Source: Patescibacteria group bacterium
GTDB lineage: Bacteria > Patescibacteriota > Patescibacteriia > UBA9934
Assembly: GCA_049296775.1 (NCBI GenBank)
Contig: JBAQTB010000001.1
Location: forward strand, 224,992 to 288,991
Reading direction: 5' to 3'
DNA length: 64,000 bases
Shown here: positions 1,923-55,592 of the stretch, piece by piece
How positions within the stretch are numbered: the first letter of the stretch is position 1
How the letters are laid out: the number at the start of each line of letters is the position of its first letter
The notes under the pieces: model-generated
Told to the model about the DNA's origin: nothing
What the model saw: only the letters and a program-made list of their open reading frames with translations
Database searches by the model: none
Position numbers and translations under genes: made by a program

Positions 1923-4073
1923 TCACGAACCTTCCGAACTCGCGTACGTCTGTTGCGACGCGGGACAGGTGCATGGGAACCGACCGCCGGCCATATCACA
2001 GGCCTCGGCCAGCGTCATACCAGCGTCTTCGACCCGCTTCTTGAAGGCCGGCAGCTTCTCTGCGCACATCGCTTCATCCGGCTGAACTAGCACCTCCTGT
2101 GCTTGCGGGCAAGTGCAGGGAAACCTGTCACCAGCCAGCTCACAAGCATCGGTCACGCTCATGCCCGCGTTTTCAACCTTCTGCTTGAAGGCCGGGAACT
2201 TCTCCGCGCAGTTTTGCGCACTGGGCGGGAGGTCAACACCGGCCCAACCAGCGACTGTATCCAACGTGACGTTGAACACGCCCGTGCCGAACTGACTGAC
2301 GCGCTGCGCGTCTTCTTTACCTACGAACATGAAGTAGCCCACTGCCAACACCATGAAGGCGGTCGCAATCGCGCTGGCCCAAGTTGGGAAGCGCTCCAAG
2401 CTCTGTCGGATATATTCAGCCGAGAGCCTGTCGTTATACTTATTGGTGAACTCGGCCATCACGATGATGATCCAAACGCTCACCATAAACAGGGCCGAAC
2501 CAGCATCGTTGATCCAGTCCAGCCCCCAACCCAGGAGCATGGTGCCGAGCCCAACTGCACTCAGAATGAGACGAATAGTCTGAATCCTGGGACGCAGAAG
2601 CTTACCCAATTTTTCGTTGAACAAGAAGATGACTGGCAGAAGCACCAAGGTCAACCAGGCCGTTACCACCCCCTGTTGGATGGTGAGTAGCGTCCAGTTC
2701 ATCGCGTTCGCGAAGAGCTGGTACAGGTGCATGATGCCGTTCTGAACGAAGTCCATGAGCGGCAGCAACAACCCGACCGTAAAGAGGCCAAAGACGTTGA
2801 CCACACACCAGCTCACGACCGAGATCGTCAGCATGCACAACACACCGAGGGGCGACGTGAGCATGTTGAACACTCGTGGCCAAGTGAGACGCTTTAGTGT
2901 TGGCAGGCGCAGATTCAACCTGTCCAGCCAATCTTTACCCTTATTCTCAAGCATTGAGGGCGGATGCATTCCTCGCTGTACCGCCAACAATGTCCGAATG
3001 TAAACCTGAGCCGATTCTGGCAAGACCCGTTTTGGCTTTTTAACCACGGGTGTCTCACCATGAAAGTAAGATGAAAGCTTCTTGAAGAAGCCCTGCTTCA
3101 CCTTTTCCGTCGGTGGCTCAGGTTCAGGATCGGCACCGAGCTCAATTAACCGCTTGGCGTCCTCTAGGCTATCAGGCAGAATCTTTTGAAGACCTTCAGG
3201 GTCTGCCAAAAGTAGTTCGGCCTGTGCTGCCAGGACCTGACTCGCGATACCTTCCAGACCAAGATCATCGTCTACCATAACCTCTTTCGAGGCCAGAGTT
3301 TCGATGCCCGCCAGGAATGTTCGCTGTGCGACAGTTAGCCGTGACAGGACTTCCAAAGCACTCGGCTTTGGCGGGGCCTGTGGCATGGACGAGGCGACAA
3401 CTGCGTCACCGTCCACATCCGCGCTCGAACCAGTGGCGGCACCCGCGTCAGTGTCAGTGTCGGTTGGCATGGGTGCTCCTCCTTCGGCGGTTGGGTTGGC
3501 GAATCCCTGATCAATGGCGGCCTGCAACACCGCAGCAGGATTGCCTTGAAGTTTGTAGAACCAAGACCAGCCCTTGCGGATTTCCGCGTCAATGGCAGGC
3601 AGGGCATCGAGCTCGATTTTACTCGGATCGATCTTCTGATCCTCAATCAGGTTCTCGACAATTTCCGGCACTTTATTCAGTGCCGCAACTGCCAAGAACT
3701 TGGCACCGGAAACAGCAATGGTGGCTACCGGGCTGTTAAGCTTGGGGCCACTCCAGTGCTCGATCGTGGTCGCGAGGCCAAAAAAGAGCAAACGCCGTTG
3801 GTCTTTATTAGACTTAGCAACGAGCCTGGCCAAGAGTCCGACCATCCCTTTGTCCAGGATGTACTTTTCGAACTCATACTTCCTAAGGAAGTCTTTGACC
3901 CAGCCCTCGGTCATACCCAAGGCGAGTTCGGTAGGGGCCGAGGCCCAATTGCCGATGGCGTCCTGTGAGATCTTTTCGAAGTTCGATGCCATGATGGCTC
4001 CTAGACCCGCAATTTGCGGGATTTTGTAGGTTAACACGAATTGTGAGAGAACGCTGTCTGAATGAACTCCCAC
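1923..4073 (-). CDS. hypothetical large membrane protein with soluble N-terminal domain, central polytopic TM region and a C-terminal tandem cysteine-motif repeat
   Basis: 716 aa. The C-terminus carries two ~40-aa repeats C-x-E-K-[FL]-P-A-F-K-x-[KR]-V-E-[ND]-A-G-M-[ST]-x-x-[DE]-A-C-[ED]-[LM]-A-G-[DG]-R-F-P-C-T-C-P. High GC and GC3 compared with the rest of the window. Confidence 0.5.
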   Translation of the reverse strand: MGVHSDSVLSQFVLTYKIPQIAGLGAIMASNFEKISQDAIGNWASAPTELALGMTEGWVKDFLRKYEFEKYILDKGMVGLLARLVAKSNKDQRRLLFFGLATTIEHWSGPKLNSPVATIAVSGAKFLAVAALNKVPEIVENLIEDQKIDPSKIELDALPAIDAEIRKGWSWFYKLQGNPAAVLQAAIDQGFANPTAEGGAPMPTDTDTDAGAATGSSADVDGDAVVASSMPQAPPKPSALEVLSRLTVAQRTFLAGIETLASKEVMVDDDLGLEGIASQVLAAQAELLLADPEGLQKILPDSLEDAKRLIELGADPEPEPPTEKVKQGFFKKLSSYFHGETPVVKKPKRVLPESAQVYIRTLLAVQRGMHPPSMLENKGKDWLDRLNLRLPTLKRLTWPRVFNMLTSPLGVLCMLTISVVSWCVVNVFGLFTVGLLLPLMDFVQNGIMHLYQLFANAMNWTLLTIQQGVVTAWLTLVLLPVIFLFNEKLGKLLRPRIQTIRLILSAVGLGTMLLGWGLDWINDAGSALFMVSVWIIIVMAEFTNKYNDRLSAEYIRQSLERFPTWASAIATAFMVLAVGYFMFVGKEDAQRVSQFGTGVFNVTLDTVAGWAGVDLPPSAQNCAEKFPAFKQKVENAGMSVTDACELAGDRFPCTCPQAQEVLVQPDEAMCAEKLPAFKKRVEDAGMTLAEACDMAGGRFPCTCPASQQTYASSEGS

Positions 4074-4303: not shown

Positions 4304-5140
4304 ATGACCCGCATGCTGTTCGTCATTGCTTTCGCTGTGCTCGTGACCACGCCCGCCTACGGGCAGGACGCACCGTCACCCACGAAGGCCAAGATCTACC
4401 TTACTGAAGGCTGGGAACAAAACGCTCAGACCTACAACGAGGATGCCCCTCAAACGAGTGACGGCACGGCGGAGGCGCCCAGCGCCGCCGCCACGACCAA
4501 CCAGCACGCCGAGGAGGAATTGTCATTTCTCCGGGAGCAGAACGAGATTCTGCTGCACCGTCTGAAGGACCCCACCGACAACACCTTGTTGCTCGGCCGG
4601 CCGACGGTGTCGACAGCGTCGAACCCGAATGAGCTCAGTGTCTGTGGGTTCGCGATGAACTCTGAGGCGCTGAGCGCACGGCAACAGCGCAAGCTGGCGC
4701 CGTACGTGAGCGGTTGCCTCACGGCTCAGGCTGGGTTGGTGAAAGCCAACAACCAGCTGCCGCTTGGGGCCATGGCCATCCAACACGGCGCACAGCTGTC
4801 GGCCACCGATCGCGGTGTCGCCGTCGGCGAAATGCCAGCCACTGTGCTGGCCAGCGTCAGTGGACAACAAAACTTCCAAAACGGTTGGGGTGGGTACGGC
4901 AGCTCAATGTCGGCACAAGTTGCAAACTTGATGTCAGCGAGCCAACTCACGGGCATGACCATGGGTAGCGGCTGGTCCAATTCTGATCCAGACCCTGACC
5001 CGGAACCCGAAACGGATCCTGAAACGGATCCTGAACCCAAGCCGGTTTCTGCGGCAGAAGCAGCACAACAAGCAGGGCGCGCAGCGGCTGCCGCCAAGAA
5101 GGCGGCGGTGTTGCAAGCGGTTCGTGAGGCGGCAGAGTAG
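4304..5140 (+). CDS. secreted hypothetical protein with C-terminal (Asp/Glu-Pro)n low-complexity linker
   Basis: Signal peptide MTRMLFVIAFAVLVTTPAYGQ. Contains the tract [20 protein letters not shown] and an Ala/Lys-rich tail. GC-rich codon usage. Confidence 0.6.
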   Translation: MTRMLFVIAFAVLVTTPAYGQDAPSPTKAKIYLTEGWEQNAQTYNEDAPQTSDGTAEAPSAAATTNQHAEEELSFLREQNEILLHRLKDPTDNTLLLGRPTVSTASNPNELSVCGFAMNSEALSARQQRKLAPYVSGCLTAQAGLVKANNQLPLGAMAIQHGAQLSATDRGVAVGEMPATVLASVSGQQNFQNGWGGYGSSMSAQVANLMSASQLTGMTMGSGWSNSDPDPDPEPETDPETDPEPKPVSAAEAAQQAGRAAAAAKKAAVLQAVREAAE

Positions 5141-5232: not shown

Positions 5233-5847
5233 ATGTTCAAAAGCCTCTTTGCATTCGCAATCACGACCGTCGTCATCCTCAATGTGGGGACGGCGATGGC
5301 CTCACCGCCGACAGCCGGGTCAGACTACCTGGTGCCAGCCGAATGGAGCACCAACCGTGGTCTGTGCGGCGCTGAATGCCGCGCAATCAAAAACAACAGC
5401 AAGCGAGGCAACTGCATCGGCTTTGGCTTTAGTGGTGAGTCGAGAGGACACGTTGAAGGCAATTTGATCATCACCGGCGATGGCAGGCTGCCGCTCGGCG
5501 TCCTCACGCCTGACGGGCCTGACCCCGATACACTGCCGGACTTCAAATACTGCATTCCACCAGGGGAGACAGTATACGGGTCAGTGAATCTGCTGGGACA
5601 AGCACGTGTCCAGCCAAACGGAGAAACGCTACTCTATTTGGTCATGACGAGCACCGCGTATGAAGTCGCGGTGAACATGACGCAGAACGAATATCCGCTA
5701 GGAAAATCGCTACTGCTGATTGTGAACGTACTCAATGAGCTCAGCGGAAGGCCAACTCTCGCCACTGGCAGACGCCTCAACCGCGCATTCATTCCAAAAG
5801 AAAGGCCGATCATCGACCTCAGCCTGAACACAGTGGCTACCAGATAG
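5233..5847 (+). CDS. secreted hypothetical Cys-containing protein
   Basis: Signal peptide MFKSLFAFAITTVVILNVGTAMA; 204 aa; GC-rich like the two neighbouring genes. Confidence 0.55.
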   Translation: MFKSLFAFAITTVVILNVGTAMASPPTAGSDYLVPAEWSTNRGLCGAECRAIKNNSKRGNCIGFGFSGESRGHVEGNLIITGDGRLPLGVLTPDGPDPDTLPDFKYCIPPGETVYGSVNLLGQARVQPNGETLLYLVMTSTAYEVAVNMTQNEYPLGKSLLLIVNVLNELSGRPTLATGRRLNRAFIPKERPIIDLSLNTVATR

Positions 5848-5908
5848 CCACGCTACCTTGCGAGCAATTACTTGAGCCGAGCTCGAGTAATTGCCGCTAA
5901 AACCAAAA

Positions 5909-5941
5909 CTCCCCTCGATCGAAATCGACGGGAGTTTTTTT
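5909..5941. terminator. bidirectional rho-independent terminator (hairpin CTCCCCTCGATCGAAATCGACGGGAG + T7)
   Basis: Perfect stem flanked by an A-tract on one side and a T-tract on the other. It sits between the convergent genes ending at 5847 (+) and 5958 (-). Confidence 0.7.
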
Positions 5942-5957: not shown

Positions 5958-6431
5958 TTAGGTGCCGTCTGTGCCGGTGGCTGAGATCAACTGATCGAGA
6001 ACAAATGAGCTGATAGCGTAAGCGGACAAGAGGATGACCAAGCCGATAACAGCGGTAATAATGATTTGCTTTGCCTTGGCGACGTTCTTTTCATCACCGC
6101 CAGCGGTCATCCACAAGAAACCAGCGTAAATCACGAGTACCAAGAAAATGATACCGAGCAAACCAAGTAACACGTTAATCAAAAGTCCCAAAGTTTCGTC
6201 CAATTCCTTGTTGCCCAAGCCCGTATTAGACTGAACGGCATCTAGATTATCCGTCAAAGCACCAGCTTCGGTAGCAGCGAAAAGCTGCGGCGCGAACACG
6301 CTAAACGGAGTGGCGATCAGCGCTGCACCTAAGATAAAGTTTTTGAATTTGCTCATAAGGTAATGAAATTTTGATGAGATAAGTATAGCACGTTTTAAAC
6401 CACCCCGCCCCACCTGTTCACAACTTCCCAT
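5958..6431 (-). CDS. TrbC/VirB2-like T4SS-pilin family small membrane protein (paralog 6 of 6)
   Basis: Signal peptide plus two TM helices. Conserved core GLLGIIFLVLVIYAGFLWMTAGGDEKNVAKAKQIIITAVIGLVILLSAYAI. Likely true start is the internal Met (MSKFKNF...), about 6356. Confidence 0.7.
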   Translation of the reverse strand: MGSCEQVGRGGLKRAILISSKFHYLMSKFKNFILGAALIATPFSVFAPQLFAATEAGALTDNLDAVQSNTGLGNKELDETLGLLINVLLGLLGIIFLVLVIYAGFLWMTAGGDEKNVAKAKQIIITAVIGLVILLSAYAISSFVLDQLISATGTDGT

Positions 6432-6435
6432 TCAA

Positions 6436-6870
6436 CTAGGTTGCACCCGTTGCAGTGATGAGCTGACTTAGTACAAAATCCGTAATGGAATAAGCTGCTA
6501 AAGCAATAACCAAACCGATCACAGCCGTAGATAAAGTCCCCTTAGCTTGAGCGATCTTCTTCTCTTCACCCCCAGCCGTCATCCAGGTGATGCCAGCGTA
6601 AATCGTCAACACTAGGAAAATTACTCCTAACAAGCCAATCACGACCTTGATCAGACTGCCAACGAGCTGGGGTAGTTGCTGGCTAATATTATAACCAGCT
6701 CCAATGTCACCAGCAGCAGAGTCTAAGCCACTATCTAAAACTAGTGCAAGGGCTGGATGAGCTAAGCTCATAACCAAGAAACCGACGGCCAGTACGATGA
6801 AAAAACGTTTAAACATATTAATCCTATAATTGCTCGGCGACGCTCCCTGGCGTGGCCGAAAGTGCATCAA
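6436..6870 (-). CDS. TrbC/VirB2-like T4SS-pilin family small membrane protein (paralog 5)
   Basis: Same core W-M-T-A-G-G-x-E-K...A-K...A-V-I-G-L-V-I...A-Y. Probable start is the internal Met (MFKRFFIVLAV), about 6816, which removes the overlap with the upstream paralog. Confidence 0.7.
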   Translation of the reverse strand: MMHFRPRQGASPSNYRINMFKRFFIVLAVGFLVMSLAHPALALVLDSGLDSAAGDIGAGYNISQQLPQLVGSLIKVVIGLLGVIFLVLTIYAGITWMTAGGEEKKIAQAKGTLSTAVIGLVIALAAYSITDFVLSQLITATGAT

Positions 6871-7228
6871 TTACGGTACTTGTAATGACATAAGCTGAAG
6901 CAATAATCACTGCTCCGACCACGGAGGCAACCAGAATATTTTTAGCATTTTCAATACGTTTAGAGTCGCCAGCTGAGGTCATCCACATTAACCCAGCATA
7001 AACTGTTAGCACCAAAAATACCACACCGGTCAGTCCGATTAATGGCTGAATAATAAAACCACCTACAAAAGTAGCAATATTGGTACGGGCCGGGTCTTTG
7101 ACCTGTTCACCATACGCCTGACCTCCGGTCTCCACTAGGCCGGAGCCGTCGACGGATAATTGAGCGGACACTAAGCTAGGCAGGGCTAGGCTGGTCACAA
7201 GGGCTAGAACGGCGAGGAGTTTTCGCAT
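6824..7228 (-). CDS. TrbC/VirB2-like T4SS-pilin family small membrane protein (paralog 4)
   Basis: Signal peptide MRKLLAVLALVTSLALPSLVSA. Core LMWMTSAGDSKRIENAKNILVASVVGAVIIASAYVI. Confidence 0.75.
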   Translation of the reverse strand: MRKLLAVLALVTSLALPSLVSAQLSVDGSGLVETGGQAYGEQVKDPARTNIATFVGGFIIQPLIGLTGVVFLVLTVYAGLMWMTSAGDSKRIENAKNILVASVVGAVIIASAYVITSTVIDALSATPGSVAEQL

Positions 7229-7309
7229 AGCGCAGGGCTCGCATGGGCTAACCTACGGCAGGTAGGCGCAAAAGGATGCGAACCGAGCGGCGTGAGAAAA
7301 CGCGAGTGC

Positions 7310-7762
7310 TTAGATACCTGAGTCGGTCGTGGTCGCGTCAATAAGTGACTGCAGTACAAAGGTCGTAATAGCGTAAGCTGACAAGATGATCGCAACACCA
7401 ATGATACCGGCGATTATCAAACGCTTAGCCTCACCGACTTTCTCATCATTACCACCAGCTGTCATCCACTTGAAACCACCGAACAAGATAATGATAACCG
7501 CTACGATACCTAGGAAACCGAGAGCTACGTTAATGAGCTCACCTAGACTTTCCTTCAAGTCTCGCTGACCAAGACCAGTTCGATCACTGAAAGAGGTCGG
7601 AAGAATATCGCTGACGTCATTAATCTCTTGAGCGCGCACCTGAGCTGCAAATGGCAGAGCCAAGGCTGCGCCAAGCATAACACTCATACCGATTCTTATA
7701 AAAGACTTCACCATACGTTTAGTGCGTAAAGTAATGATTAATATCTGAGAGAAGTATAGCAT
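7310..7762 (-). CDS. TrbC/VirB2-like T4SS-pilin family small membrane protein (paralog 3)
   Basis: Core FKWMTAGGNDEKVGEAKRLIIAGIIGVAIILSAYAI. Probable start at the internal Met (MVKSFIRIG), about 7714. Confidence 0.7.
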   Translation of the reverse strand: MLYFSQILIITLRTKRMVKSFIRIGMSVMLGAALALPFAAQVRAQEINDVSDILPTSFSDRTGLGQRDLKESLGELINVALGFLGIVAVIIILFGGFKWMTAGGNDEKVGEAKRLIIAGIIGVAIILSAYAITTFVLQSLIDATTTDSGI

Positions 7763-7782
7763 AGCTCCAGAGCTGTGCTGAA

Positions 7783-8148
7783 CTATGCCTGACCACCGAT
7801 CGCTGAACCAGTTACCAGACCGTTAATCACGGCGTTCACAAGTACATAAGCAGAGGCGATGAGGGCCAAACCGAGCACTGCCCAAGTGATGACCGTTTTA
7901 CCGCGCTCAATCCGTTTAGATTCTCCAAAAGAGGTGATCCACAAGACACCGCCGTACACAAACATTAGCAAGGCCGCCGAACCAACCACAGATAAAATCG
8001 CCTTAATCACGTTACCCACAATAATACGTGGATCTGAAGTGTCGCCAAGTGGATTGACTAGGACCACCTGTGCGGCGACTAAGCGCGGGGCACACACCAG
8101 GCCAAGCGCGAGTAAGCTCCAGCTAAGACGTTTTAATGACAATTGCAT
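7783..8148 (-). CDS. TrbC/VirB2-like T4SS-pilin family small membrane protein (paralog 2)
   Basis: Signal peptide plus core VLWITSFGESKRIERGKTVITWAVLGLALIASAYVL. Confidence 0.7.
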   Translation of the reverse strand: MQLSLKRLSWSLLALGLVCAPRLVAAQVVLVNPLGDTSDPRIIVGNVIKAILSVVGSAALLMFVYGGVLWITSFGESKRIERGKTVITWAVLGLALIASAYVLVNAVINGLVTGSAIGGQA

Positions 8149-8183
8149 ATAGTTTATAAACCTGAGGGACTAGAGCTGATATT

Positions 8184-8714
8184 TTATTGCTGGGCTTCTT
8201 CAATAGTTTCCTGAATAGTCTGGCTCTGTTCATCACCAGCCAAGGCAGAAATCAAGAAGTTGATTAATGAGTAAGACATAATAATGATAACAAAGCCGAT
8301 AGTCGCGTTAATAACTGTTTCTTTGCCTTTCTCAATTCTATCCGGCTGACCAAGTGAGGTGGTCCACAAAAAGCCGCCGTACACGAACATGAGCAAGACC
8401 AGGGAACCACTCACGCCTAAAATCAAAATGGTGACGTTAACAAAAACCTGCAAAATTTGATTGAGCGTACACTGCCCCGCGAGCTTACAGGCCTCAGCTG
8501 AAGTACAGTTACCGTCAACATCGTCATCGGTGATGTTGGCAAAAATGATGCCGTCAATCAAAATCCTATCAAAACCTGCCTCTTGATCAGTAGTCTTGAT
8601 CCCCGAACCCGAACATTCGGCTGCGTAGGCCACAAAATGACTAGGTACACTAAACGCCCCCAGGAGTACGAGGGCGCTCATGAATCCAACTAAGGCTCTG
8701 ACTAGAGAACGCAT
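8184..8714 (-). CDS. TrbC/VirB2-like T4SS-pilin family small membrane protein (paralog 1, longer Cys-containing ectodomain)
   Basis: Signal peptide, a Cys-rich ~80-aa insert, then the core FLWTTSLGQPDRIEKGKETVINATIGFVIIIMSYSLI. Confidence 0.65.
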   Translation of the reverse strand: MRSLVRALVGFMSALVLLGAFSVPSHFVAYAAECSGSGIKTTDQEAGFDRILIDGIIFANITDDDVDGNCTSAEACKLAGQCTLNQILQVFVNVTILILGVSGSLVLLMFVYGGFLWTTSLGQPDRIEKGKETVINATIGFVIIIMSYSLINFLISALAGDEQSQTIQETIEEAQQ

Positions 8715-8737
8715 AACGCTCTCAGTATAGCATGCGA

Positions 8738-10123
8738 CTAATAGGTCTGCCGCACAACCTGTGCCGCTCGGTTCACGGTTTCTTCTGGATCATTGCCGGC
8801 CAAGATTTGATCAGCGAAATCATTCAAAGCTTTCTCCATAGCATCTGCATCTCTACCCCGGTACCAGCTTTGAGCAGTTAAAACTTGCTCCGCAAATGGG
8901 CCCAGCTCCTCACTGTTAAGTTGTGAATTGATCAAACCACGCAAAGCTGTGGGCTTACCGGCTCTAGTTAAATATTTGCTGGCCTGTTCAGCAGAAGTAG
9001 CAAATTGCAAGAAATCCCAAGCGTAGTCTGACTCGTCAGAATTATTCGCCACAACTTCCACCCAGTAGTTAGCGTAATTAACCTGCTTACCCCCGGCAAT
9101 CTGTGGAATCTTGCTCACGGCGTAATTCAACTTAGGGGCTGCGGCTAATAAGTAAGGAATGTGGTAACTGTAGCCAAAGAAAAAGGCAGCTTGGCCGTTA
9201 GCAAAGGCTTCAAAGGAACCAGCGAAATCGCTATTCCAGGTGTAAACCTCCTTGGTAGGGTTAGCGAAATCAGTGTAAAAAACGGCAGCATCGATAGCTG
9301 GAAATAAACCTTCTGGCGTACCCTTGGGCACACTAGCAAACGCAACAGAATTACCCTCTGTCATAACCGTACCGTTTTGCAACATGAGCAATGACAGCAA
9401 ATCGACCGAACGTTCTACGTTATCCGTGGTACCAAGAGCCGCTCCAGCTTGGGTAACTTCACCTTCAGCATTCAGCACTGTCAATTTGATCACGTCGTCC
9501 TGGAAGGTCTCCCAATCTGTGGGTGGCTGGGCGATGCCGGCAGAATTCAATAAATCTTTATTGTAAAACAGGACCAAGCTATCAACAGACATGGGTAAAC
9601 CGTAAATGCGGTTAGCCGGCGCCACACTCGGGCTAGCCTGGTATGGCTTAATCACGTCTGAAGCCACCACATCCACAAACTGTTGTTTCAATGCCTTCTC
9701 ACTCAACGTTGGCTGTTCACGGGCTACAAAGATCGTTTCTTTACGCAACGTACCCACCGTTTCCTGGTAAGCCACGGTCACAGCGGCTGGCATGGGCTGC
9801 ATCAAAGTCTGCATTTCACCAAGCTTACTGTTATGCACGGAAAACATGTCCGGTCCCCTGCCCTCCGCAAAAGCACGAATAAGTTCCGTCTCATATTCTT
9901 CCGTGCGAAGTTTGCGGTAATTGATTCTGACGTTTGGATGCAAAGCAGAATACGCAGCAATAATGCTGTCAAAAGTATCTTCACCATCAAACACCCGCCA
10001 GTAATCCAAAACAACCGGTGCGCCGCCAGTGCTGGCCGTCTTTCCGCCCCCAAAACATCCCGCCCCCAGCGTGAGCAGGAGCGTGAAGGCTAAACCGGCA
10101 CCAAACAAGCGCTTAATCACCAT
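8738..10123 (-). CDS. lipoprotein, extracellular solute-binding protein (ABC transporter substrate-binding, family-1/sugar-type)
   Basis: Lipobox LTLGAGC. About 440-aa periplasmic-binding-protein-like fold. Its stop lies 23 nt upstream of the pilin paralog array and its start 1 nt after the galU stop. Confidence 0.55.
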   Translation of the reverse strand: MVIKRLFGAGLAFTLLLTLGAGCFGGGKTASTGGAPVVLDYWRVFDGEDTFDSIIAAYSALHPNVRINYRKLRTEEYETELIRAFAEGRGPDMFSVHNSKLGEMQTLMQPMPAAVTVAYQETVGTLRKETIFVAREQPTLSEKALKQQFVDVVASDVIKPYQASPSVAPANRIYGLPMSVDSLVLFYNKDLLNSAGIAQPPTDWETFQDDVIKLTVLNAEGEVTQAGAALGTTDNVERSVDLLSLLMLQNGTVMTEGNSVAFASVPKGTPEGLFPAIDAAVFYTDFANPTKEVYTWNSDFAGSFEAFANGQAAFFFGYSYHIPYLLAAAPKLNYAVSKIPQIAGGKQVNYANYWVEVVANNSDESDYAWDFLQFATSAEQASKYLTRAGKPTALRGLINSQLNSEELGPFAEQVLTAQSWYRGRDADAMEKALNDFADQILAGNDPEETVNRAAQVVRQTY

Positions 10124-10124
10124 A

Positions 10125-11027
10125 TTATTTTTTAAGAGCTTTCAAGTAAGCCTTAAGCTCTTTCTTAACTTCATCATGCTCTAGCCCAAGCTCAATTTGC
10201 GCCAAAATAAACTGGAGTTTATTGCCACAGTCATACCGCACGCCCTCAAACTTACAGGCGTACATGGGGCCGTTCTCTTTCAAGAGTGTCTCAAAAGCAT
10301 CAGCCAATCTAATCTCACCGTCTTTGCCGGGCGTCTGTACCTTGAGCAACCTAATTATGTCTGGAGTAATCACATACCGGCCCACTGCCGCCAAATTAGA
10401 TGGCGCGTCTTCCGGCTTGGGCTTTTCTACGAATTTATCGATCTTCCACACCTTAGACCCCACATTCTTACCCGCGATCACGCCGTAACTAGACACCTTA
10501 GCCTTAGGCACGGGCTGAATAGCCACCACTGGAGCGTGATATTTCTCGTAAGTTTCCATGAGCTGCCCAATGGCTGGTTGTTTGCCAGTAATAATGTCAT
10601 CGCCAAACAATACTGCAACTGATTCGTCATCGCCCACAAACGGAGCAGCAGACAAAATAGCATGGCCGTCACCAAGCGGTTTTTGCTGACGCACAAAGGC
10701 GAATTTAGCTAATTTTCCAAGCTCCTGAATCTGCTCTAGCTCTTTATACTTACGCTTCTGTTCTAAGCGATACTCCAACTCAAAGTTACGATCAAAATGA
10801 TCTTCAATGGCGCGTTTACCAATGGCAGTCACGAAAATAATTTCTTCGATCCCAGCGGCCACGGCTTCCTCTACAATATATTGAATCACCGGTTTATCAA
10901 CCACCGGCAACATCTCCTTAGGCTGAGCCTTAGTAGCAGGCAAAAATCTCGTGCCCATACCGGCCACAGGAATGATAGCTTTACGAATAGTCTGAGACAT
11001 AGCTTTTACAGTATAGCAAACATGCAT
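10125..11027 (-). CDS. galU: UTP--glucose-1-phosphate uridylyltransferase
   Basis: Motifs AIIPVAGMGTRFLPATKAQPKEMLPVVDKPVIQYIVEEA and VGRYV. Probable true start at MSQTIRK, about 11000. Confidence 0.9.
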   Translation of the reverse strand: MHVCYTVKAMSQTIRKAIIPVAGMGTRFLPATKAQPKEMLPVVDKPVIQYIVEEAVAAGIEEIIFVTAIGKRAIEDHFDRNFELEYRLEQKRKYKELEQIQELGKLAKFAFVRQQKPLGDGHAILSAAPFVGDDESVAVLFGDDIITGKQPAIGQLMETYEKYHAPVVAIQPVPKAKVSSYGVIAGKNVGSKVWKIDKFVEKPKPEDAPSNLAAVGRYVITPDIIRLLKVQTPGKDGEIRLADAFETLLKENGPMYACKFEGVRYDCGNKLQFILAQIELGLEHDEVKKELKAYLKALKK

Positions 11028-11135
11028 ACGTTGAATACAAAAAACTCCCCGTGGGAGTTTGAAAACGTAATCTGCAAAGAAAAAGCCAACCTTGATGTAA
11101 TCGCTGGTTGGCCATGTTGAGAGTTCCGCGACTTG

Positions 11136-25853: not shown

Positions 25854-26987
25854 TTACTGTCTAATGGGCATGACGATATACACGTATGGTTGACCAGCTT
25901 CTTCTTTAGGCACTACCACACACGGGCTCACGGCATCAATGAGTTTGAGCACGACCTTCTCTGAGCCAATAGCGCCAACGCCGTCGAGTAAGTAGCGGTA
26001 GTTGAGGGTAGCAATGTTATCTTCACCCGTAATTTCCGCATCCACGGCCACGCTGTTCTCGCCCCGGCCAGCATCTGTAGCTGACAGCTCAACTTGGTTA
26101 CCGCCAGCCTTTACTTCCAATCTGACATCGAATAATCCGGCCTTAGAAAACAAGCTCGTCCGCTTCACCGCCTGCATAAACGCAACGCGGTTAACCGTGA
26201 TCTCAGTCTTAGCGTGCTTGGGGATAATCTCTTGATAAGGTGGATAAACTCCATCCAAAGTTCTTGATAGCAATTCGGCACTGCCGTACCTGAACGCCAC
26301 TTGGTTATCCGTCAGTTCAACCTCAAGTTCAGCGGGCATTTCCGCGCTATCTTTAAGGACGCCAATAATCCGTCTGAGCTCGGCCATGGTTCTAGCTGGA
26401 ATAATCACCCGGCGCTCACCCATGACTTCACCCTTCAAACTAATTACGCTCTCACCCAAACGATAACTATCGGTCGCGGCCACCGTTAAGCTCTTGGTCT
26501 CCCCAACAAAATTCATGAAGACACCGGTCAAAACCTGTCTAGCCTCGCTCGTGGCGACCGCAAACAGCGTCCTAGACAACGCAATTTCTAGAGCCGCCAC
26601 TGGAATCATGAACTTTGTGCCCCCAGAGATCTGCGGAACCAACGGAAATTCGCCTGAAGACATGCCGTTAATCTTGGTCTTAGAGGCACCACACACCACC
26701 GACAGGGCCGTGTCGAGTAAATCCAGGTCAACCCGCTCGTCTGGCAATAAGCTGACGTAATCTGAAAATAAACGAGAAGGCAAAGTGTATTCACCTGGTT
26801 GATCGACCTTACCCCGTACCTGACAAGTAACCGTTAAATCTAAATTTGTCGCCGTTAGCCGTACTCCACCTACATCTGCTCTCAATAAAACGTTATTCAG
26901 AATAGGTAGGTTGGCATTCTTAGCACTTAAATGACTGACAACCGCGAGTCCTTGGTGCAGATTCTCTTTCGTACAGGAAAGCTTCAC
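25854..26987 (-). CDS. dnaN: DNA polymerase III beta sliding clamp
   Basis: 377 aa with three-domain clamp architecture. N-terminus MKLSCTKENLHQGLAVVSHLSAKNANLPILNNVLL. Directly downstream of dnaA. Confidence 0.9.
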   Translation of the reverse strand: MKLSCTKENLHQGLAVVSHLSAKNANLPILNNVLLRADVGGVRLTATNLDLTVTCQVRGKVDQPGEYTLPSRLFSDYVSLLPDERVDLDLLDTALSVVCGASKTKINGMSSGEFPLVPQISGGTKFMIPVAALEIALSRTLFAVATSEARQVLTGVFMNFVGETKSLTVAATDSYRLGESVISLKGEVMGERRVIIPARTMAELRRIIGVLKDSAEMPAELEVELTDNQVAFRYGSAELLSRTLDGVYPPYQEIIPKHAKTEITVNRVAFMQAVKRTSLFSKAGLFDVRLEVKAGGNQVELSATDAGRGENSVAVDAEITGEDNIATLNYRYLLDGVGAIGSEKVVLKLIDAVSPCVVVPKEEAGQPYVYIVMPIRQ

Positions 26988-27325
26988 AGGGCGGGAATTT
27001 AATTTTAATTTCTAAAAAGTAACTATAGTAAGGCTGTGGATAGTGTGGACAGATGCGTTGCGAGGCTATTTTACTTGAGATCCGCGGAGTTGGCTTGTGG
27101 ATGAAAACTGCATGGAGGTGTTCATGGGGTGTGGGGAAAAGAACTTCCCAGGTCTGGGTCAGGGTTTACTCGCTGTTTGTCCCCTGGTCTATCCCCCTAC
27201 TTATCCGGGGGTCTGTCCACGGCCTTGTCCACACTTTATACCCGATTCCGGGTTATCCGCTAGGTATCAACACTGTGTACACAGCATGGATAAGTTACTC
27301 GGTTTATACAGAGGTTATCCGCAGT
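26988..27325. promoter_or_regulatory. candidate oriC: dnaA-dnaN intergenic region with at least 8 DnaA-box-like 9-mers and an AT-rich DUE
   Basis: Boxes TGTGGATAG 27035, TGTGGACAG 27044, TGTGGATGA 27096, TTGTCCACA 27225, TTATCCGCT 27253, TGGATAAGT 27287, TTATCCGCA 27314. AT-rich stretch AATTTAATTTTAATTTCTAAAAAGTAACTATAGTAA at 26995-27030. Confidence 0.7.
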
Positions 27326-28810
27326 CTAAGAGCCAACGTACAGACGTTGTTTGATTAATTCCAAGTCTTTTTGGAGCTTTTCATCCGTATCGACCATGCC
27401 GGCGATTTTGGTGTGAGCGTGCATAGCGGTGGTGTGATCGCGGCCGCCGAGTTCTGTGCCAATGGTTGGATATGAACTCTTCATCTCTTCTCTTAGAAGG
27501 TACATGATGATTTGGCGTGGGAAGGCTAAACGCTTTTCTCGACTTTTACCCAGAACTTCTTCCAGACTGATATCGAAATATTCAGCGACCACCTGAATAA
27601 CTTGTTTGGGAGTAACGGTTTTCTTGATATTTTCCGCTTCAAAGCTAGCAACGATGGGCTTGATGCTTTCAAGAGTCGGTTCCATGTTGCGGAATTGGTG
27701 GATCGCCGAAATTTTATTCAGAGCACCTTCTAGCTCACGCACATTAGAAGAGATGCTAGAGGCAATGTACTGGAGGATCTCGCGACTCAAATTAAAGCCA
27801 CGTTCTAGACATTTCTTTTGCAAAATCGCAATCCTGGTTTCTAGGTCTGGTGTACCGACGTCGACTAACATGCCCCACTCCAGGCGTGATTGTAAGCGTT
27901 TTTCCAGTCCCGCAATTGATTTTGGGGGTCGGTCAGAAGAAATCACGATTTGGCGATTTTCTTGATGTAAAGAATTGAAAGTATGGAAGAACTCCTCTTG
28001 AGTCCCCTCTTTACCGGTAATAAATTGAATGTCATCAATGAGTAAAAGGTCGACGTTGCGATAACGATCTTTAAATTCTTTACCTTTTCCAGCTCTAACG
28101 GAATGGATGAAGTCATTCGTGAAGTGTTCACAAGTGACGTACATGATACGAGCGGAAGACCAGCGGCGTTTAATTTCATTAGCAATGGCGTGGAGCAGGT
28201 GAGTTTTACCCAGTCCGACTCCACCGTAAATGAACAAGGGGTTATACGTGCCACCGGGTTGAGCAGCGACGGCTTGGGCCGCAGCGTGAGCGAGTTCATT
28301 TTGCTTACCCACGACAAAAGTTTGGAAAGTGTAATTGGGATTAATTGTAATGTTGCCAGATGGTGGCGCCATTTCTACCGCGCCGGTTTGGACAAAGCCG
28401 TAGTCTTCTTGAGTTGAGCCGCCGGCGTGGGCTGGCATTTTCGATTCAATGACGAGTGGTTGTGGGTCAATGGGTTTAGTTTCTACGCGGCAAGTCAGGC
28501 TGCGGACGGGTTGATCAGTAATGTTTTGTACGGCTTCCACGATATCGCGGAAAAACTTCTTCTCAAGCCAAGACTGCGCTAATGAATTGGGAACGGCAAT
28601 GACGATCTCTCCACTGCGGTATTCGCTAACAAAAGTATTGCGAAACCAGGTGGTGAAATTGGCCTTGCTCATTTTGAGCTCGAGCTGTCCGAGTACGGCT
28701 TCCCAAAGTTCATGAGTGTTCATAGTTGGGGCGAAGAAGCTAATCACCTGGGTGGACCGACAACAAGGTTCGGCGTAGACGATTTGCCACATCATAACCA
28801 ATTTGTCCAC
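27326..28810 (-). CDS. dnaA: chromosomal replication initiator protein DnaA
   Basis: AAA+ Walker A GGVGLGKTHLL, box VII and a C-terminal HTH. Probable true start at MNTHELWEAVL (~28722). Confidence 0.95.
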   Translation of the reverse strand: MDKLVMMWQIVYAEPCCRSTQVISFFAPTMNTHELWEAVLGQLELKMSKANFTTWFRNTFVSEYRSGEIVIAVPNSLAQSWLEKKFFRDIVEAVQNITDQPVRSLTCRVETKPIDPQPLVIESKMPAHAGGSTQEDYGFVQTGAVEMAPPSGNITINPNYTFQTFVVGKQNELAHAAAQAVAAQPGGTYNPLFIYGGVGLGKTHLLHAIANEIKRRWSSARIMYVTCEHFTNDFIHSVRAGKGKEFKDRYRNVDLLLIDDIQFITGKEGTQEEFFHTFNSLHQENRQIVISSDRPPKSIAGLEKRLQSRLEWGMLVDVGTPDLETRIAILQKKCLERGFNLSREILQYIASSISSNVRELEGALNKISAIHQFRNMEPTLESIKPIVASFEAENIKKTVTPKQVIQVVAEYFDISLEEVLGKSREKRLAFPRQIIMYLLREEMKSSYPTIGTELGGRDHTTAMHAHTKIAGMVDTDEKLQKDLELIKQRLYVGS

Positions 28811-29089
28811 AGCCTACAAACAGGCAAAAGTGAATGAATGGTGGATGGAAATGGGGATAAGTAGGCAATATCTGGGGATAAGACCGGAAGTTATGCACAT
28901 TTTCACTGTAAAAGCTGTCAAGAATCGTGGTTTAATAGATGATGTAATTGTGACCCTGTTTAGACGTAGGCCGGGTATGGCCGTCGGCTAAAACTAGTCA
29001 CTAGAGCCCTAAGAGGCTAAAAGTCCGCCCAGTCAGGAGCGAATATTTGACATTTTTCAACGGGAGCCTTATGCTCTCAGCACTTTTCT

Positions 29090-29242
29090 ATGCCTAAGCG
29101 CACATATCAACCTAAAAAGCGCAGACGCGCCAAGGTACAAGGCTTTCGCCAGCGCATGAAGACCAAAGACGGCCGAGCCGTTCTGAAGCGTCGTCGTGCA
29201 AAGGGCCGCAAGCGTCTAACTTTGACCGCCCGTCCCCGCTAG
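29090..29242 (+). CDS. rpmH: 50S ribosomal protein L34 (not in supplied ORF track; <60 aa)
   Basis: Translates to [50 protein letters not shown]. Divergent from dnaA and immediately upstream of rnpA. Confidence 0.9.
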
Positions 29243-29300
29243 AACATTGATAAATCCTGGCAGCAATGCTGGGATTTATTATTTGCAGTACACTATACGT

Positions 29301-29657
29301 ATGTTTTCTGATAAGCACAGATTGCGTCACGATCAAGACATTGCCAGAGTTCTTAAGTCTAAGAAGAGCGTTTTTGATGCTGCCGCTGGACTTAAGTACG
29401 CGGTTAACGAAAAAGCTCACAATCGCGTCACGGTGGTGGTGGGGATTAAGGTAAGTAAGAATGCTACAGACAGAAACAGAGTTAAACGTCAGTATCGGGA
29501 AATCGTCCGGTTATTGATGCCTGACTTGAAGACTGGCTTTGATATTATCATTTTAGTCTCAAAACCAGCTCTGGCTTTAGATTATGAACAAAAGCGGACA
29601 CGCCTTACGCAAGTTTTCAAAAAATCCGGTTTACTCCAAGCTTCAGCAAGAAGTTAG
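29301..29657 (+). CDS. rnpA: ribonuclease P protein component
   Basis: KVSKNATDRNRVKRQYREIVR motif. The ORF track begins at TTG 29247, but the ATG at 29301 (MFSDKHRLRH) fits the family length. Confidence 0.8.
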   Translation: MFSDKHRLRHDQDIARVLKSKKSVFDAAAGLKYAVNEKAHNRVTVVVGIKVSKNATDRNRVKRQYREIVRLLMPDLKTGFDIIILVSKPALALDYEQKRTRLTQVFKKSGLLQASARS

Positions 29658-41132: not shown

Positions 41133-41795
41133 CTACACGGCAGCGTTTGGAGTGGCTTTACGGCGGCGGCGTGGGCGTTCTGATTGAGCGGCAGGCGCAA
41201 CGGGCTCAGAGTGCTCTTTCTGTTGCTGCTCGGCGATGACATCATCAAAGGTGTCTACAGCCGATGATTTAGTGTTGGGCGTTGGTCGATATTTTGGATC
41301 GTTGATAAGGAAGCTGCCGAGATCATCAGAAAAGTTGGTGTAAATATCGGCGCATTCCACCAGCTTAGATGAAGTTGATTCGCGGAAGGAGGCCACGTGG
41401 AAGATGCGGCCGCGATTTTTTACGTACTCACCAAGAGGCACGTAGTCTCCATCACCGGAAACGATGATGACGACGTCCAGCATGTCGATCATGCGAATGA
41501 TATCCACGGTGATACCTACGTCCCAGTCCCCTTTCTTATGGCCTGAATCGTATTCTAGCAATTCTTTTGTGTTCACTTCAATGCCCATCTTGTGCAGGGC
41601 TTCAAAGAATGGGAGCTCCTCACCGGTTTTGGTAGAAACGGTGTAAGCAATAGCGCGTACCAAGCGTTGATCGCCTAAAGTTTTCAGGACGATGTTTCCA
41701 AAGTTGACCTTACTGCCATAAATATTTCTGGCACTGTAGTACATGTTTTGCACGTCGATGAAAACTCCGACGCGTCTGTGGCTCAAATCGAGCAT
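41133..41795 (-). CDS. NYN/LabA-like PIN-fold domain protein
   Basis: GVFIDVQNMYYSARN...IIVSGDGDYVPL is the NYN signature. Basic C-terminal tail. Confidence 0.7.
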   Translation of the reverse strand: MLDLSHRRVGVFIDVQNMYYSARNIYGSKVNFGNIVLKTLGDQRLVRAIAYTVSTKTGEELPFFEALHKMGIEVNTKELLEYDSGHKKGDWDVGITVDIIRMIDMLDVVIIVSGDGDYVPLGEYVKNRGRIFHVASFRESTSSKLVECADIYTNFSDDLGSFLINDPKYRPTPNTKSSAVDTFDDVIAEQQQKEHSEPVAPAAQSERPRRRRKATPNAAV

Positions 41796-42217: not shown

Positions 42218-42671
42218 CCGTATAGTCGTAGTGAGAGGGACTCAAGCCTCAAACCATGGCTATCGGCAGGTTATTTATGGGAGAAGTCTAGCTAAAAAAG
42301 CGCTAAACGTCAAGTTTTGAGCCTTAAAGAAAAACCGTCGCCTCCAGGGGAAGCGACGGCCGCGTGACAAGCGTCACAAGTCTGCAAGTGGAGTGCCTAC
42401 GAGGGGCACTCTGTAAACGGGTTTATGCCGAGCGTTGCTCGGCGTCAGTGGGTATCGTCAGAAGGTGGGGGCCCGGATGCCGAGGGGAAGGACCGGCGGC
42501 TCTCTGAGCGCTTCATGGCGTACCTCAAGCCAGTTTTACCTGGCTAGGAGTTGGGGGCTGGCTGAATCGCCATCTTTGCGACTCCAACACAAAGACAAGA
42601 CTATTCATGCCTGGTTTGGTAGGATTCGTCAATGCGCATGGTACAATTTACGACACATAAAGCTTCCGAAT

Positions 42672-43595
42672 ATGGAGAATGTTTTTGGCAAGTACTTAAA
42701 AGAATTTTTGGAGTATTTGGAAATTGAGCGGGGTCGTTCCGACAAGACGGTTCGTAACTACCATTTTTATTTAAAACGATTTTCGGATTGGGCGAATAAT
42801 CCTAACCCAGCTGAAATCAGTGGTGAATTAGTGCGTAAGTATCGCTTGCATTTGAATCGCAATGTCGCGGGGAGAGAAGAAGCGCAACTCAAAAAGAACA
42901 CTCAGAATTATCACTTGATTGCGCTAAGAGCCTTTTTGAAATATTTAGCTAAGCGTGATGTGCAGACACTGGCGCCAGAAAAGATCGAGTTATCCAAACA
43001 AGGGAGTCGACATGTGTCTTTTCTTGAGGCTGAGGAGTTAAAACGCTTTCTAGAGGCACCTGTGGGGGACCCAAGTATTGTTGGTGCCAGAGACAAAGCG
43101 ATTTTGGAGTTATTATTTTCTACCGGCCTACGTGTTTCTGAGATTGCGAACTTACGTATTGACGCGATCAATTTGAAATTGGACGAATTTACGGTGTTAG
43201 GCAAAGGCAGTAAGCACCGCGTAGTGTTTCTAGCTAATCCAGCCAGAATTGCGATTAAGACTTATTTGGAACGTCGTCGAGATGTGTCACCGTATTTGTT
43301 TGTGCGGCATGACAGAGCGCGTAAGTTTACCCCCGGCGCTCACCCCCTCACCCCACGATCAATTCAAAGAATCGTAGACAGATACGCGCGCATGGCCGGC
43401 ATCACCAAGCGCGTCACGCCGCATACTTTGCGGCATACTTACGCGACTGATTTATTGCGTAATGGTGCGGATATTCGTTCCGTACAATCTTTACTAGGTC
43501 ATGAGTCAATTACGACCACGCAGGTGTACACCCATATTACAGATAAAGAATTAAAACGGGTTTATCATCAATTTCATGATAAGACCGGAGAATAA
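42672..43595 (+). CDS. tyrosine site-specific recombinase, XerC/XerD family
   Basis: R..HxxR...Y catalytic set (HTLRHTYATDLL, LLGHESITTTQVYTHI). The ORF track starts at 42435, but that extension is GC-rich and non-coding-looking. MENVFGKYLKEF at 42672 is the likely start, with TGGTACAAT extended -10 upstream. Confidence 0.85.
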   Translation: MENVFGKYLKEFLEYLEIERGRSDKTVRNYHFYLKRFSDWANNPNPAEISGELVRKYRLHLNRNVAGREEAQLKKNTQNYHLIALRAFLKYLAKRDVQTLAPEKIELSKQGSRHVSFLEAEELKRFLEAPVGDPSIVGARDKAILELLFSTGLRVSEIANLRIDAINLKLDEFTVLGKGSKHRVVFLANPARIAIKTYLERRRDVSPYLFVRHDRARKFTPGAHPLTPRSIQRIVDRYARMAGITKRVTPHTLRHTYATDLLRNGADIRSVQSLLGHESITTTQVYTHITDKELKRVYHQFHDKTGE

Positions 43596-43703: not shown

Positions 43704-43780
43704 GCCTCGATAGCTCAGTTGGATAGAGCAAGGGACTTCTAAGCCCGAGGTCGCAGGTTCGAACCCTGCTCGAGGCACCA
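43704..43780 (+). tRNA. tRNA-Arg (anticodon TCT), CCA encoded; anticodon stem has only 3 G-C pairs flanked by A/G mismatches
   Basis: GCCTCGATAGCTCAGTTGGATAGAGCAAGGGACTTCTAAGCCCGAGGTCGCAGGTTCGAACCCTGCTCGAGGCACCA. Acceptor, D and T arms are perfect. Confidence 0.8.
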
Positions 43781-50658: not shown

Positions 50659-50754
50659 ATTTGACCTTTGGGGATTATGAAGACTATAATGTGTTCGCTT
50701 AGTGTTCGTAGTATAGCATATGCGGAGACGCTAGTTTTACGACTCTATGAGCCT

Positions 50755-55591: not shown

Positions 55592-55592
55592 C

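Follow-up and report, generated by a model that had tools for sequence, protein, structure and literature searches.

A tandem array of six VirB2-like T4SS_pilin genes linked to galU and a sugar-type substrate-binding protein gene in a Uhrbacteria-like patescibacterium

A cluster of six small genes was analyzed in a 64,000-nucleotide stretch of DNA (hereafter the window) from a Patescibacteria group bacterium (contig JBAQTB010000001.1, positions 224,992 to 288,991). The cluster occupies positions 5958-8714 of the minus strand of the window and consists of co-oriented adjacent open reading frames (ORFs), numbered g1 to g6 in the order of transcription. It lies directly downstream of galU and a gene for a lipoprotein substrate-binding protein (SBP). 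The reading frames of g3, g5 and g6 extend upstream of the starts adopted in Table 1; the likely true start of g3 is M17 (7714), since its orthologs begin at the equivalent of this residue. As read from the sequences, each of the six products begins with a signal peptide, behind which two hydrophobic helices are connected by a short polar loop. Probable cleavage sites of the signal peptides, assigned by eye, have the form AxA, in many cases with Q as the next residue. Alignment of the six paralogs contains 11 invariant columns, including those of the pattern G..W.T..G..K..G..Y, and pairwise identity among them is 21-51%. An earlier note on this DNA, made from the sequence alone, had described six divergent tandem minus-strand paralogs with a shared core motif, the first of them with an extra Cys-rich ectodomain, separated from the SBP gene by 23 bp and placed behind galU. 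This description holds in every part: the SBP gene stops at 8738, the g1 ATG is at 8714, and the adjacency to galU and the SBP gene is deeply conserved. In the NCBI copy of the locus (tags WAZ14_011xx) the g1 product is already named 'pilin', and database copies carry a precomputed PF18895 annotation.

Table 1. Genes and putative regulatory elements of the pilin locus and its surroundings (window coordinates)
Feature	Position	Strand	Remarks
g1	8184-8714	minus	176 aa; extra Cys-rich N-terminal ectodomain (4 Cys); PF18895 36.6 bits
g2	7783-8148	minus	121 aa; PF18895 37.1 bits
g3	7310-7714	minus	134 aa from M17; ORF reaches 7762; PF18895 39.1 bits, TrbC 18.6 bits
g4	6824-7228	minus	134 aa; PF18895 30.1 bits
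g5	6436-6816	minus	126 aa, gene-caller start; ORF reaches 6870; PF18895 37.9 bits, TrbC 18.1 bits
g6	5958-6356	minus	132 aa, NCBI start; ORF reaches 6431; PF18895 39.9 bits, NF045849 39.6 bits
TGCTATACT before galU	11010-11018	minus	promoter-like; 9 nt before galU ATG
TGCTATACT before g1	8724-8732	minus	promoter-like; 9 nt before g1 ATG, within the 23-bp SBP-g1 spacer
TGCTATACT before g3	7753-7761	minus	promoter-like element
TGCTATACT before g6	6382-6390	minus	promoter-like element, 25 nt from g6 ATG
RNA hairpin, g3-g4 spacer	7231-7289	minus	conserved, covarying; ends 2 nt before g4 ATG
Intrinsic terminator after g6	5899-5938	minus	14-bp interrupted stem, U-tract; preceded by an A-tract, possibly bidirectional
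Terminator-like hairpin of the gene preceding galU	11042-11060		just upstream of the galU promoter element
galU, UTP-glucose-1-phosphate uridylyltransferase	10125-11000	minus	TIGR01099 351.8 bits (cutoff 326.8)
SBP, lipoprotein, SBP_bac_1, carbohydrate type	8738-10123	minus	PF01547 5.5e-25; no permease adjoining
Orphan secreted protein	5233-5847	plus	204 aa; no Pfam or NCBIfam family
Orphan secreted protein	4304-5140	plus	278 aa; no Pfam or NCBIfam family
Orphan multi-transmembrane protein	1923-3992	minus	~690 aa; C-terminal Cys-rich repeat; no Pfam or NCBIfam family
Wzy_C-domain protein	645-1844	plus	PF04932 3.2e-15
Wzx-type flippase, C-terminal part	14-643	plus	full-length copy in related locus L001 annotated PF01943

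All six proteins scored above the gathering threshold of Pfam family PF18895 (T4SS_pilin, where T4SS stands for type IV secretion system), with 30-40 bits against a required 26.6. They were also matched by the NCBIfam model NF045849 of the Mbov_0395 pilin-like conjugal transfer protein, at 39.6, 34.6, 31.3, 22.8, 20.0 and 16.0 bits. The best of these matches is g6 (E 3e-10), and all six stay under the equivalog cutoff of 40, which makes them relatives rather than members of that family. Next to these curated models, a profile built from 62 sequences of the pilin family was compared by hhalign with a reference profile. The reference comprised eight proteins annotated as VirB2/TrbC on MPF_T plasmids, whose genes all lie between virB1 and virB3. 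The match (probability 86.3%, E 4.8e-6, score 38.7) extended over the whole mature domain, 66 columns in which both helices and the loop between them are included. The reversed profile scored 13.3. Among 90 column shuffles, some of them done in blocks of 6 or 12 columns to retain the hydrophobic layout, mean scores were 12-14, the highest score was 24 and none reached 38.6. Kinship with VirB2 therefore exceeds what shared composition would produce. An AlphaFold2 model of g6 calculated with the family alignment is a two-helix hairpin (residues 52-84 and 89-127), in which 10-residue blocks across positions 61-120 average pLDDT values of 89-95 and the N-terminal part is of low confidence. In a structure search the predicted helical hairpin matched thousands of unrelated chains and was hence uninformative. 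No holin or lysis family was found in PHROGs, where five of the six proteins had no match at all and g1 had one weak match to a family of unknown function. The assignment of the six proteins to the T4SS_pilin/VirB2-like family, proposed in the earlier note, is supported by these profile comparisons, and the generic holin-like family that the note had set against it gave no signal in PHROGs.

Two candidate matches were rejected on the way. PrgF of pCF10, considered as a monoderm counterpart, reached an E-value of ~1e-4 with g3-type pilins in phmmer and failed the controls: in hhalign it scored 16.7, less than the best block shuffle (18.6) and little more than the reversed sequence (15.3), and bias correction cancelled the HMMER score. 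Matches to designed 'Pizza' propellers in a profile search of the PDB were artefactual multi-repeat matches.

Related genomes were gathered by a scan with g6 orthologs; individual loci from these genomes are referred to below by handles beginning with L. The nearest genomes are mostly Candidatus Uhrbacteria, which the dataset accompanying a recent survey (Quinonero-Coronel et al. 2025, PMC12102498) places in the GTDB class ABY1. The host of the array is an ABY1-class, Uhrbacteria-like patescibacterium. A number of records titled 'uncultured Gammaproteobacteria bacterium' (L017, L022, L024, L028 and many more), together with single ones titled Planctomycetota and Kapaibacterium, contain arrays of the Patescibacteria type, most of them linked to galU-SBP; these titles are evidently wrong taxonomic labels.

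Orthology of the individual genes was tested on 47 six-gene arrays from other genomes by determining the best match of each gene among the six of the window. The gene in the same slot was the best match for g1 to g6 in 37, 36, 37, 35, 40 and 26 of the 47 arrays, respectively, and the g6 cases off the diagonal match g5, the closest paralog of g6. At least five of the six slots fell on the diagonal in 34 of the 47 arrays. The array thus keeps its six slots and their order, with 1:1 orthologs, in at least 34 genomes, and the median identity of orthologs is 38-59%, compared to 21-51% for paralogs. Within slots, column conservation is 0.6-0.9 in the helix-loop-helix core and 0.25-0.5 in the N-terminal segment and the Ser/Thr/Gly-rich C-terminal tail. 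The core of g3 is the best conserved of the six (0.88-0.92), with a near-invariant loop. The ectodomain of g1 has at least four Cys residues in 34 of 35 sequences (the window and 34 orthologs). As orthologs specific to each slot occur in dozens of genomes, the duplications are old, and these comparisons point to a fixed, non-redundant kit of six genes rather than to rapid antigenic turnover.

The upstream neighbours of the array are conserved as well. Where the upstream flank of a related locus is readable, the galU-SBP pair in most cases lies immediately upstream of the pilin genes, and the linkage extends to distant arrays of 7-12 genes in Buchananbacteria, Magasanikbacteria and metagenome-assembled genomes of the Parcubacteria group. 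Synteny among relatives ends upstream of galU. The SBP gave only weak matches to carbohydrate-binding SBP models of NCBIfam.

The 9-mer TGCTATACT, similar to an extended -10 promoter element, occurs in five copies in the window, compared to 0.29 expected, and four of these are located in the pilin locus, before galU, g1, g3 and g6. The fifth copy (50710-50718, minus strand) lies 51 nt upstream of rmuC (49552-50658) and is alone among the intergenic matches in falling outside the pilin locus; its presence suggests a small set of genes that share this promoter type. A relaxed form of the motif, TGnTAYAHT, with a background frequency of 1 per 6.4 kb, was found upstream of slots 1 to 6 in 14, 2, 14, 0, 0 and 12 cases, respectively, in 19 related arrays. 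The putative terminator after g6 has a folding free energy (dG) of -22.5 kcal/mol (z -4.9), and none of 200 shuffled sequences folds equally well; analogous hairpins follow g6 in L002 and L005. Since the extended -10 motif is conserved before g1, g3 and g6, the pilin genes appear to have promoters of their own and are predicted to form three units, g1-g2, g3-g4-g5 and g6. The earlier note had the array as apparently cotranscribed with galU and the SBP gene. The conserved adjacency agrees with this view, which is nevertheless weakened by the internal motifs and by a terminator-like hairpin located between the SBP gene and g1 in L005. The motif is the same, and equally spaced from the start codon, at galU and g1; this therefore suggests co-regulation of galU-SBP and the pilins rather than obligatory cotranscription. 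In the window genome itself transcripts may read through from the SBP gene into g1. We conclude that galU and the SBP gene are probably co-regulated and functionally coupled with the pilin genes, though not demonstrably joined to them in one transcript.

The spacer between g3 and g4 contains an RNA hairpin. Over 34 genomes, this spacer has a median dG of -20.9 kcal/mol (z -3.6), compared to z values of ~0.1 for the g2-g3 and g5-g6 spacers. In an alignment of 23 hairpin sequences compensatory changes are seen in 11 of 13 base pairs, 91.5% of the paired cells are complementary as against 64.5% in shuffles (0 of 500 reach the observed value) and 38-53% in slid registers, and the covariation score is 0.711 against 0.236. 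A covariance model returned one match per Uhrbacteria-type array, always at the g3-g4 junction (window 7226-7295, 42.6 bits), and recovered the held-out cases, namely the window, L005, L024, L030 and L032. There was no other match in 1.27 Mb and none in arrays of 7-12 genes, and Rfam gave no match to the hairpin. We conclude that the hairpin is very likely real. Across arrays its helix ends 2-5 nt before the g4 ATG with no U-tract after it, and its 3' arm is G-rich, so that the hairpin covers the position at which a ribosome-binding site would be expected. Intercistronic stem-loops are known to set the ratios of major and minor subunits in chaperone-usher pilus operons (pap, fim). The similarity to these consists in a stable hairpin directly after a pilin gene within a pilin operon. 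The pilus systems are different, however, and the hairpin described here runs up to the start codon of the following gene with no U-tract behind it, so that translational masking is at least as likely a role as stabilization of an mRNA 3' end. More distant ABY1 lineages (L046, L057, L059, L067, L087, L092 and L093) have 10-12 pilin genes linked to galU-SBP and no g3-g4 hairpin motif. The array must therefore have grown or shrunk over deep time with its upstream neighbours kept.

Downstream of the array, the Uhrbacteria-like set of genomes encodes three orphans, namely two small secreted proteins and a membrane protein of ~700 amino acids, and then a Wzy_C-domain protein, a Wzx flippase and SpoIID. 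The three orphans are fast-evolving, conserved in position and located in a stretch of 55% GC; identity to L002 is 32.5% for the multi-transmembrane orphan (orf716), compared to 84% for galU and 69% for SBP. Their homologs were found in close relatives only, at the same position, and iteration recruited no T4SS reference protein (VirB6, PrgH). The Wzy_C and Wzx genes are linked to the array in ~20 relatives; in L054 they are relocated upstream and still adjoin it.

The 690-716-residue membrane protein was considered as a VirB6/PrgH-like platform and rejected: Pfam and NCBIfam gave no match, jackhmmer recruited same-slot relatives only, and a search of 5.8 billion proteins returned only the query itself. 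Its gene (window 1923-4073, minus; L002:12323-14407; L005:12493-14565) has 55% GC, compared to 48%, and contains long antisense ORFs. An apparent strand inversion of this gene in relatives proved to be an artefact, as gene callers had taken the antisense ORF (L002) or both strands (L005); the true ortholog sits on the pilin strand.

Tandem arrays of this kind are known. The survey by Quinonero-Coronel et al. (PMC12102498) counts 441 VirB2-like arrays in 383 patescibacterial assemblies; each comprises 2-11 genes, and identity averages 25% and reaches at most 54%. An array is defined there as at least two PF18895/PF04956 genes in tandem or one gene apart; six adjacent genes are present in the window. 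Besides the family assignment and tandem layout, divergence (21-51% here) and a location not far from dnaA are shared with the published arrays. The array is ~19 kb from dnaA (27326-28810), which together with dnaN (25854-26987) and rnpA belongs to a cluster at 25854-29657 where a change of sign of the GC skew at ~28 kb marks the origin of replication; elsewhere the window has the content of an ordinary chromosome (polA, pnp, PBP, tRNAs). T4SS-related genes of Patescibacteria are often found near the origin, according to the survey. Its stress is on Microgenomatia, Saccharimonadia and proximity to virB4, whereas the array of the window belongs to ABY1 and is unlinked. The ABY1-wide linkage to galU-SBP, the slot orthology, the internal promoters and the g3-g4 hairpin are not described in the passages of PMC12102498 that were consulted.

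The closest experimental case is that of Southlakia epibionticum ML1 (Saccharimonadia), where a predicted pilin series within the T4SS cluster SEML1_0006-0019 is essential (Wang et al. 2023, PMC10633639). The number of these pilins is given as six in a 2025 review (PMC12857230), which also speculates on a pilus on a monoderm T4SS. A patescibacterial host, tandem sequence-divergent and structurally similar VirB2-like pilins and even their number, six, are common to both arrays. The S. epibionticum pilins, however, are encoded inside the T4SS cluster, while the array of the window, known from sequence, lies between galU-SBP and genes for surface proteins and glycans, in another class (ABY1), and is at least 10 kb away from any VirB4 across the loci of relatives. 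VirB2/TrbC (PF04956) of Agrobacterium, the major subunit of the conjugative/T-pilus, has a signal peptide, a two-helix hairpin of similar length and a short polar loop like the proteins studied here. In contrast to the array, it is a single protein rather than six paralogs; the TrbC scores of the array are sub-threshold, its genes are not adjoined by VirB1, VirB3 or VirB4, and its host is monoderm. The Mbov_0395 family (NF045849) of integrative and conjugative elements (ICEs) of Mycoplasma, a component of a monoderm T4SS, matches all six proteins over the helix-loop-helix; it is ~80 amino acids long and encoded on a mobile element, and the window pilins fall just under its equivalog cutoff.

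We consider it reasonably probable that the six non-redundant pilins are major and minor building blocks of the pilus-like surface structure ascribed to the VirB4-type T4SS of Patescibacteria, here encoded elsewhere in the genome, and that they are expressed in three dosed units. Each pilin would be made with a Sec-type signal peptide, exported, processed and held in the membrane as a hairpin. The mature protein would consist of helix 1, a loop that has the motif W-[MI]-T-x-x-G and a conserved Lys, and helix 2, with the variable N-terminal segment and the short Ser/Thr/Gly-rich C-terminal tail facing outward. The T4SS would extract the pilins and polymerize them into a pilus- or stalk-like structure that may serve host contact in an epibiotic lifestyle, not conjugation. 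Polymerization by a T4SS unlinked to the array is inferred from the parallels with VirB2 and the essential pilins of S. epibionticum. The three extended -10 promoters would split expression into the units g1-g2, g3-g4-g5 and g6, the hairpin after g3 would occlude the start region of g4, and the strong terminator would end transcription after g6. The expected result is unequal doses of subunits, high for g3 and g6 and low for g4 and g5, which would fit major and minor subunits. With its Cys-rich ectodomain, g1 is a candidate for a specialized or tip-like subunit.

Several results weigh against this interpretation. The gathering score of the Pfam TrbC family (27.9 bits) was not reached, with 18.1 bits for g5, 18.6 for g3 and no match for the other four proteins. 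No solved pilin was found when the PDB was searched by sequence profile with the family alignment. The promoters and near-leaderless starts, like the effect of the hairpin on dosage, are deduced from sequence conservation only. We know of no monoderm T4SS on which a pilus has so far been seen. Finally, no VirB4, VirB6, VirB3 or VirD4 was detected within 10 kb on either side of the pilin match in 80 related loci with T4SS queries from pTi and pCF10; the sole match to a T4SS reference protein was a VirB11-like ATPase in L072. The ORFs of the window likewise gave no VirB4, VirB11, VirB6, VirB3 or VirD4 by Pfam or by phmmer with the same queries, in agreement with the earlier note, which had seen no obvious T4SS ATPase in the window. 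The note had suggested a look for VirB4, VirB6 and VirB11 homologs elsewhere in the genome. No VirB4 or VirB6 was detected within 10 kb of the array in relatives, but four genomes with this pilin family, three of them with a galU-SBP-linked array, are recorded as VirB4-positive members of ABY1 in Table S1 of PMC12102498.

Alternatively, the T4SS_pilin hairpin may be a membrane anchor or display module, or part of a channel or stalk, rather than a polymerizing subunit. The six proteins would then reside in the cytoplasmic membrane with short (g2-g6) or larger (g1) ectodomains, perhaps acting with surface proteins and products of glycan genes. Such a role would suit an array that is unlinked to VirB4 and tightly linked to galU, SBP, the surface orphans and Wzy/Wzx. 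The best curated relative outside Pfam, moreover, is a protein of an ICE of Mycoplasma, a wall-less monoderm in which we know of no conjugative pilus. The same genomes also fuse the pilin domain to immunoglobulin-like Big_5 repeats in a protein of ~600 amino acids, and the pilin hidden Markov model (HMM) matches an adjacent ORF of more than 2,850 codons as well. In F- and T-pilus structures both pilin termini face outward. For this reason the fusions are equally compatible with decorated minor pilins. Five of the six proteins expose only 20-45 residues, which leaves little for display, and the homology is to proteins with a known role in polymerization. On balance, we regard the anchor or channel role as unlikely.

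The fusion genes form a second conserved locus in genomes with six-gene arrays (L043:9872-11674, plus strand, and downstream; L034, L041, L048, L068). There, the gene for the ~600-residue protein, with its T4SS_pilin domain N-terminal to Big_5, is followed by the >2,850-residue ORF, both among housekeeping genes (HflX, HisRS). The products are possibly adhesin-bearing minor pilins or pilin-anchored adhesins.

Tandem divergent VirB2 copies are also found in the host-associated bacteria Bartonella and Anaplasma phagocytophilum, where they have been interpreted as antigenic variation (cited in PMC12102498). By the same logic, the six genes could be alternative versions of one major pilin used one or a few at a time for surface variation, antigenic or in host range, an option that PMC12102498 mentions. 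The exposed N-terminal part and C-terminal tail are indeed the variable regions (0.25-0.5), three separate promoters could permit differential expression, and arrays enlarge to 7-12 genes in more distant ABY1 lineages. Against this stands the constancy of the set, whose six slots recur in unchanged order and with 1:1 orthologs across at least 34 genomes and have conserved signatures of their own, such as the Cys-rich domain of g1 and the near-invariant loop of g3. The compared arrays showed no pseudogene cassettes and no sign of gene conversion or of a recent duplication. Bartonella and Anaplasma are animal pathogens, whereas the copies studied here are stably orthologous across many species, which therefore argues for a division of labour. 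We hold surface variation to be less likely still than an anchor. Both options had been left side by side in the earlier note: its heteropolymeric filament is favoured by the strict slot orthology, and its antigenic diversification, in the form of fast paralog turnover, is disfavoured.

A wider reading would make galU-SBP, the array, the surface proteins, Wzy_C/Wzx and the new hairpin a single ABY1 'surface filament plus sugar' module, set apart from the core T4SS locus. The Wzy_C family includes the pilin O-oligosaccharyltransferases PglL and PilO. An enzyme of this family might glycosylate the outward Ser/Thr-rich tails of the pilins, or neighbouring surface proteins, with glycans derived from UDP-glucose. 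The orphan SBP might capture or sense a host-derived sugar at the base of the filament, and the stoichiometry of the pilins might be set by the g3-g4 hairpin, as a new cis-regulatory RNA specific to this clade. We offer this module as a speculation with a low probability, below that of either alternative above.

Finally, the suggestion that these are members of a generic family of small two-transmembrane proteins, holin-like or otherwise unrelated to secretion, whose 'pilin' label is an artefact of hydrophobic composition, is largely refuted and can be considered essentially excluded with only the slightest chance left to it, for although the plain hairpin fold is ubiquitous, solved pilins escaped the profile search and the PrgF resemblance was no better than shuffles, the match to authentic VirB2 survived reversal, full-shuffle and local-block-shuffle controls, two curated pilin models match independently, PHROGs gave no holin or lysis family, and a published experimental link ties the family to the T4SS cluster of S. 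epibionticum (PMC12857230, PMC10633639).

Two other regions of the window were noted. From ~55575 to past the window end at 64000, the plus strand encodes at least 2,808 residues of a giant ORF with a signal peptide and Thr/Ala/Gly/Ser/Asn-rich repeats of ~440 amino acids, preceded by an 818-residue CarboxypepD_reg/SdrD_B protein (53135-55591). The giant ORF is probably a giant surface adhesin. The pilin HMM has no match in it (55575-64000), Tandem Repeats Finder reported no repeats at 55-64 kb, and minus-strand ORFs with GTG starts at 55.8-63.4 kb are its antisense shadows. A tyrosine recombinase/integrase gene (42435-43595, plus strand) adjoins tRNA-Arg(tct) (43704-43780), with an NYN-domain gene (41133-41795) nearby, and this region may be the edge of an integrated element.

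Arrays of tandem VirB2-like genes are an already published kind of locus, and the slot orthology, promoters, hairpin and neighbourhood described here are added, incremental detail. They bear on a general question nonetheless, namely what the pilins of Patescibacteria build and why there are several of them. Patescibacteria are thought to be epibionts, and an unusual T4SS with its pilin array is essential in the one genetically tractable case. A fixed six-member kit with 1:1 orthologs suits a multi-component structure better than decoy variation. The pilin genes can be separated from VirB4 in the genome, and their linkage to the genes for a UDP-glucose enzyme and an orphan SBP of sugar type persists. 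Internal promoters and the covarying hairpin seem to set the dose at which the pilins are expressed. As refinements of a known phenomenon rather than a new system, these points provide testable hypotheses for metatranscriptomics, proteomics and cryo-electron tomography of groundwater communities.

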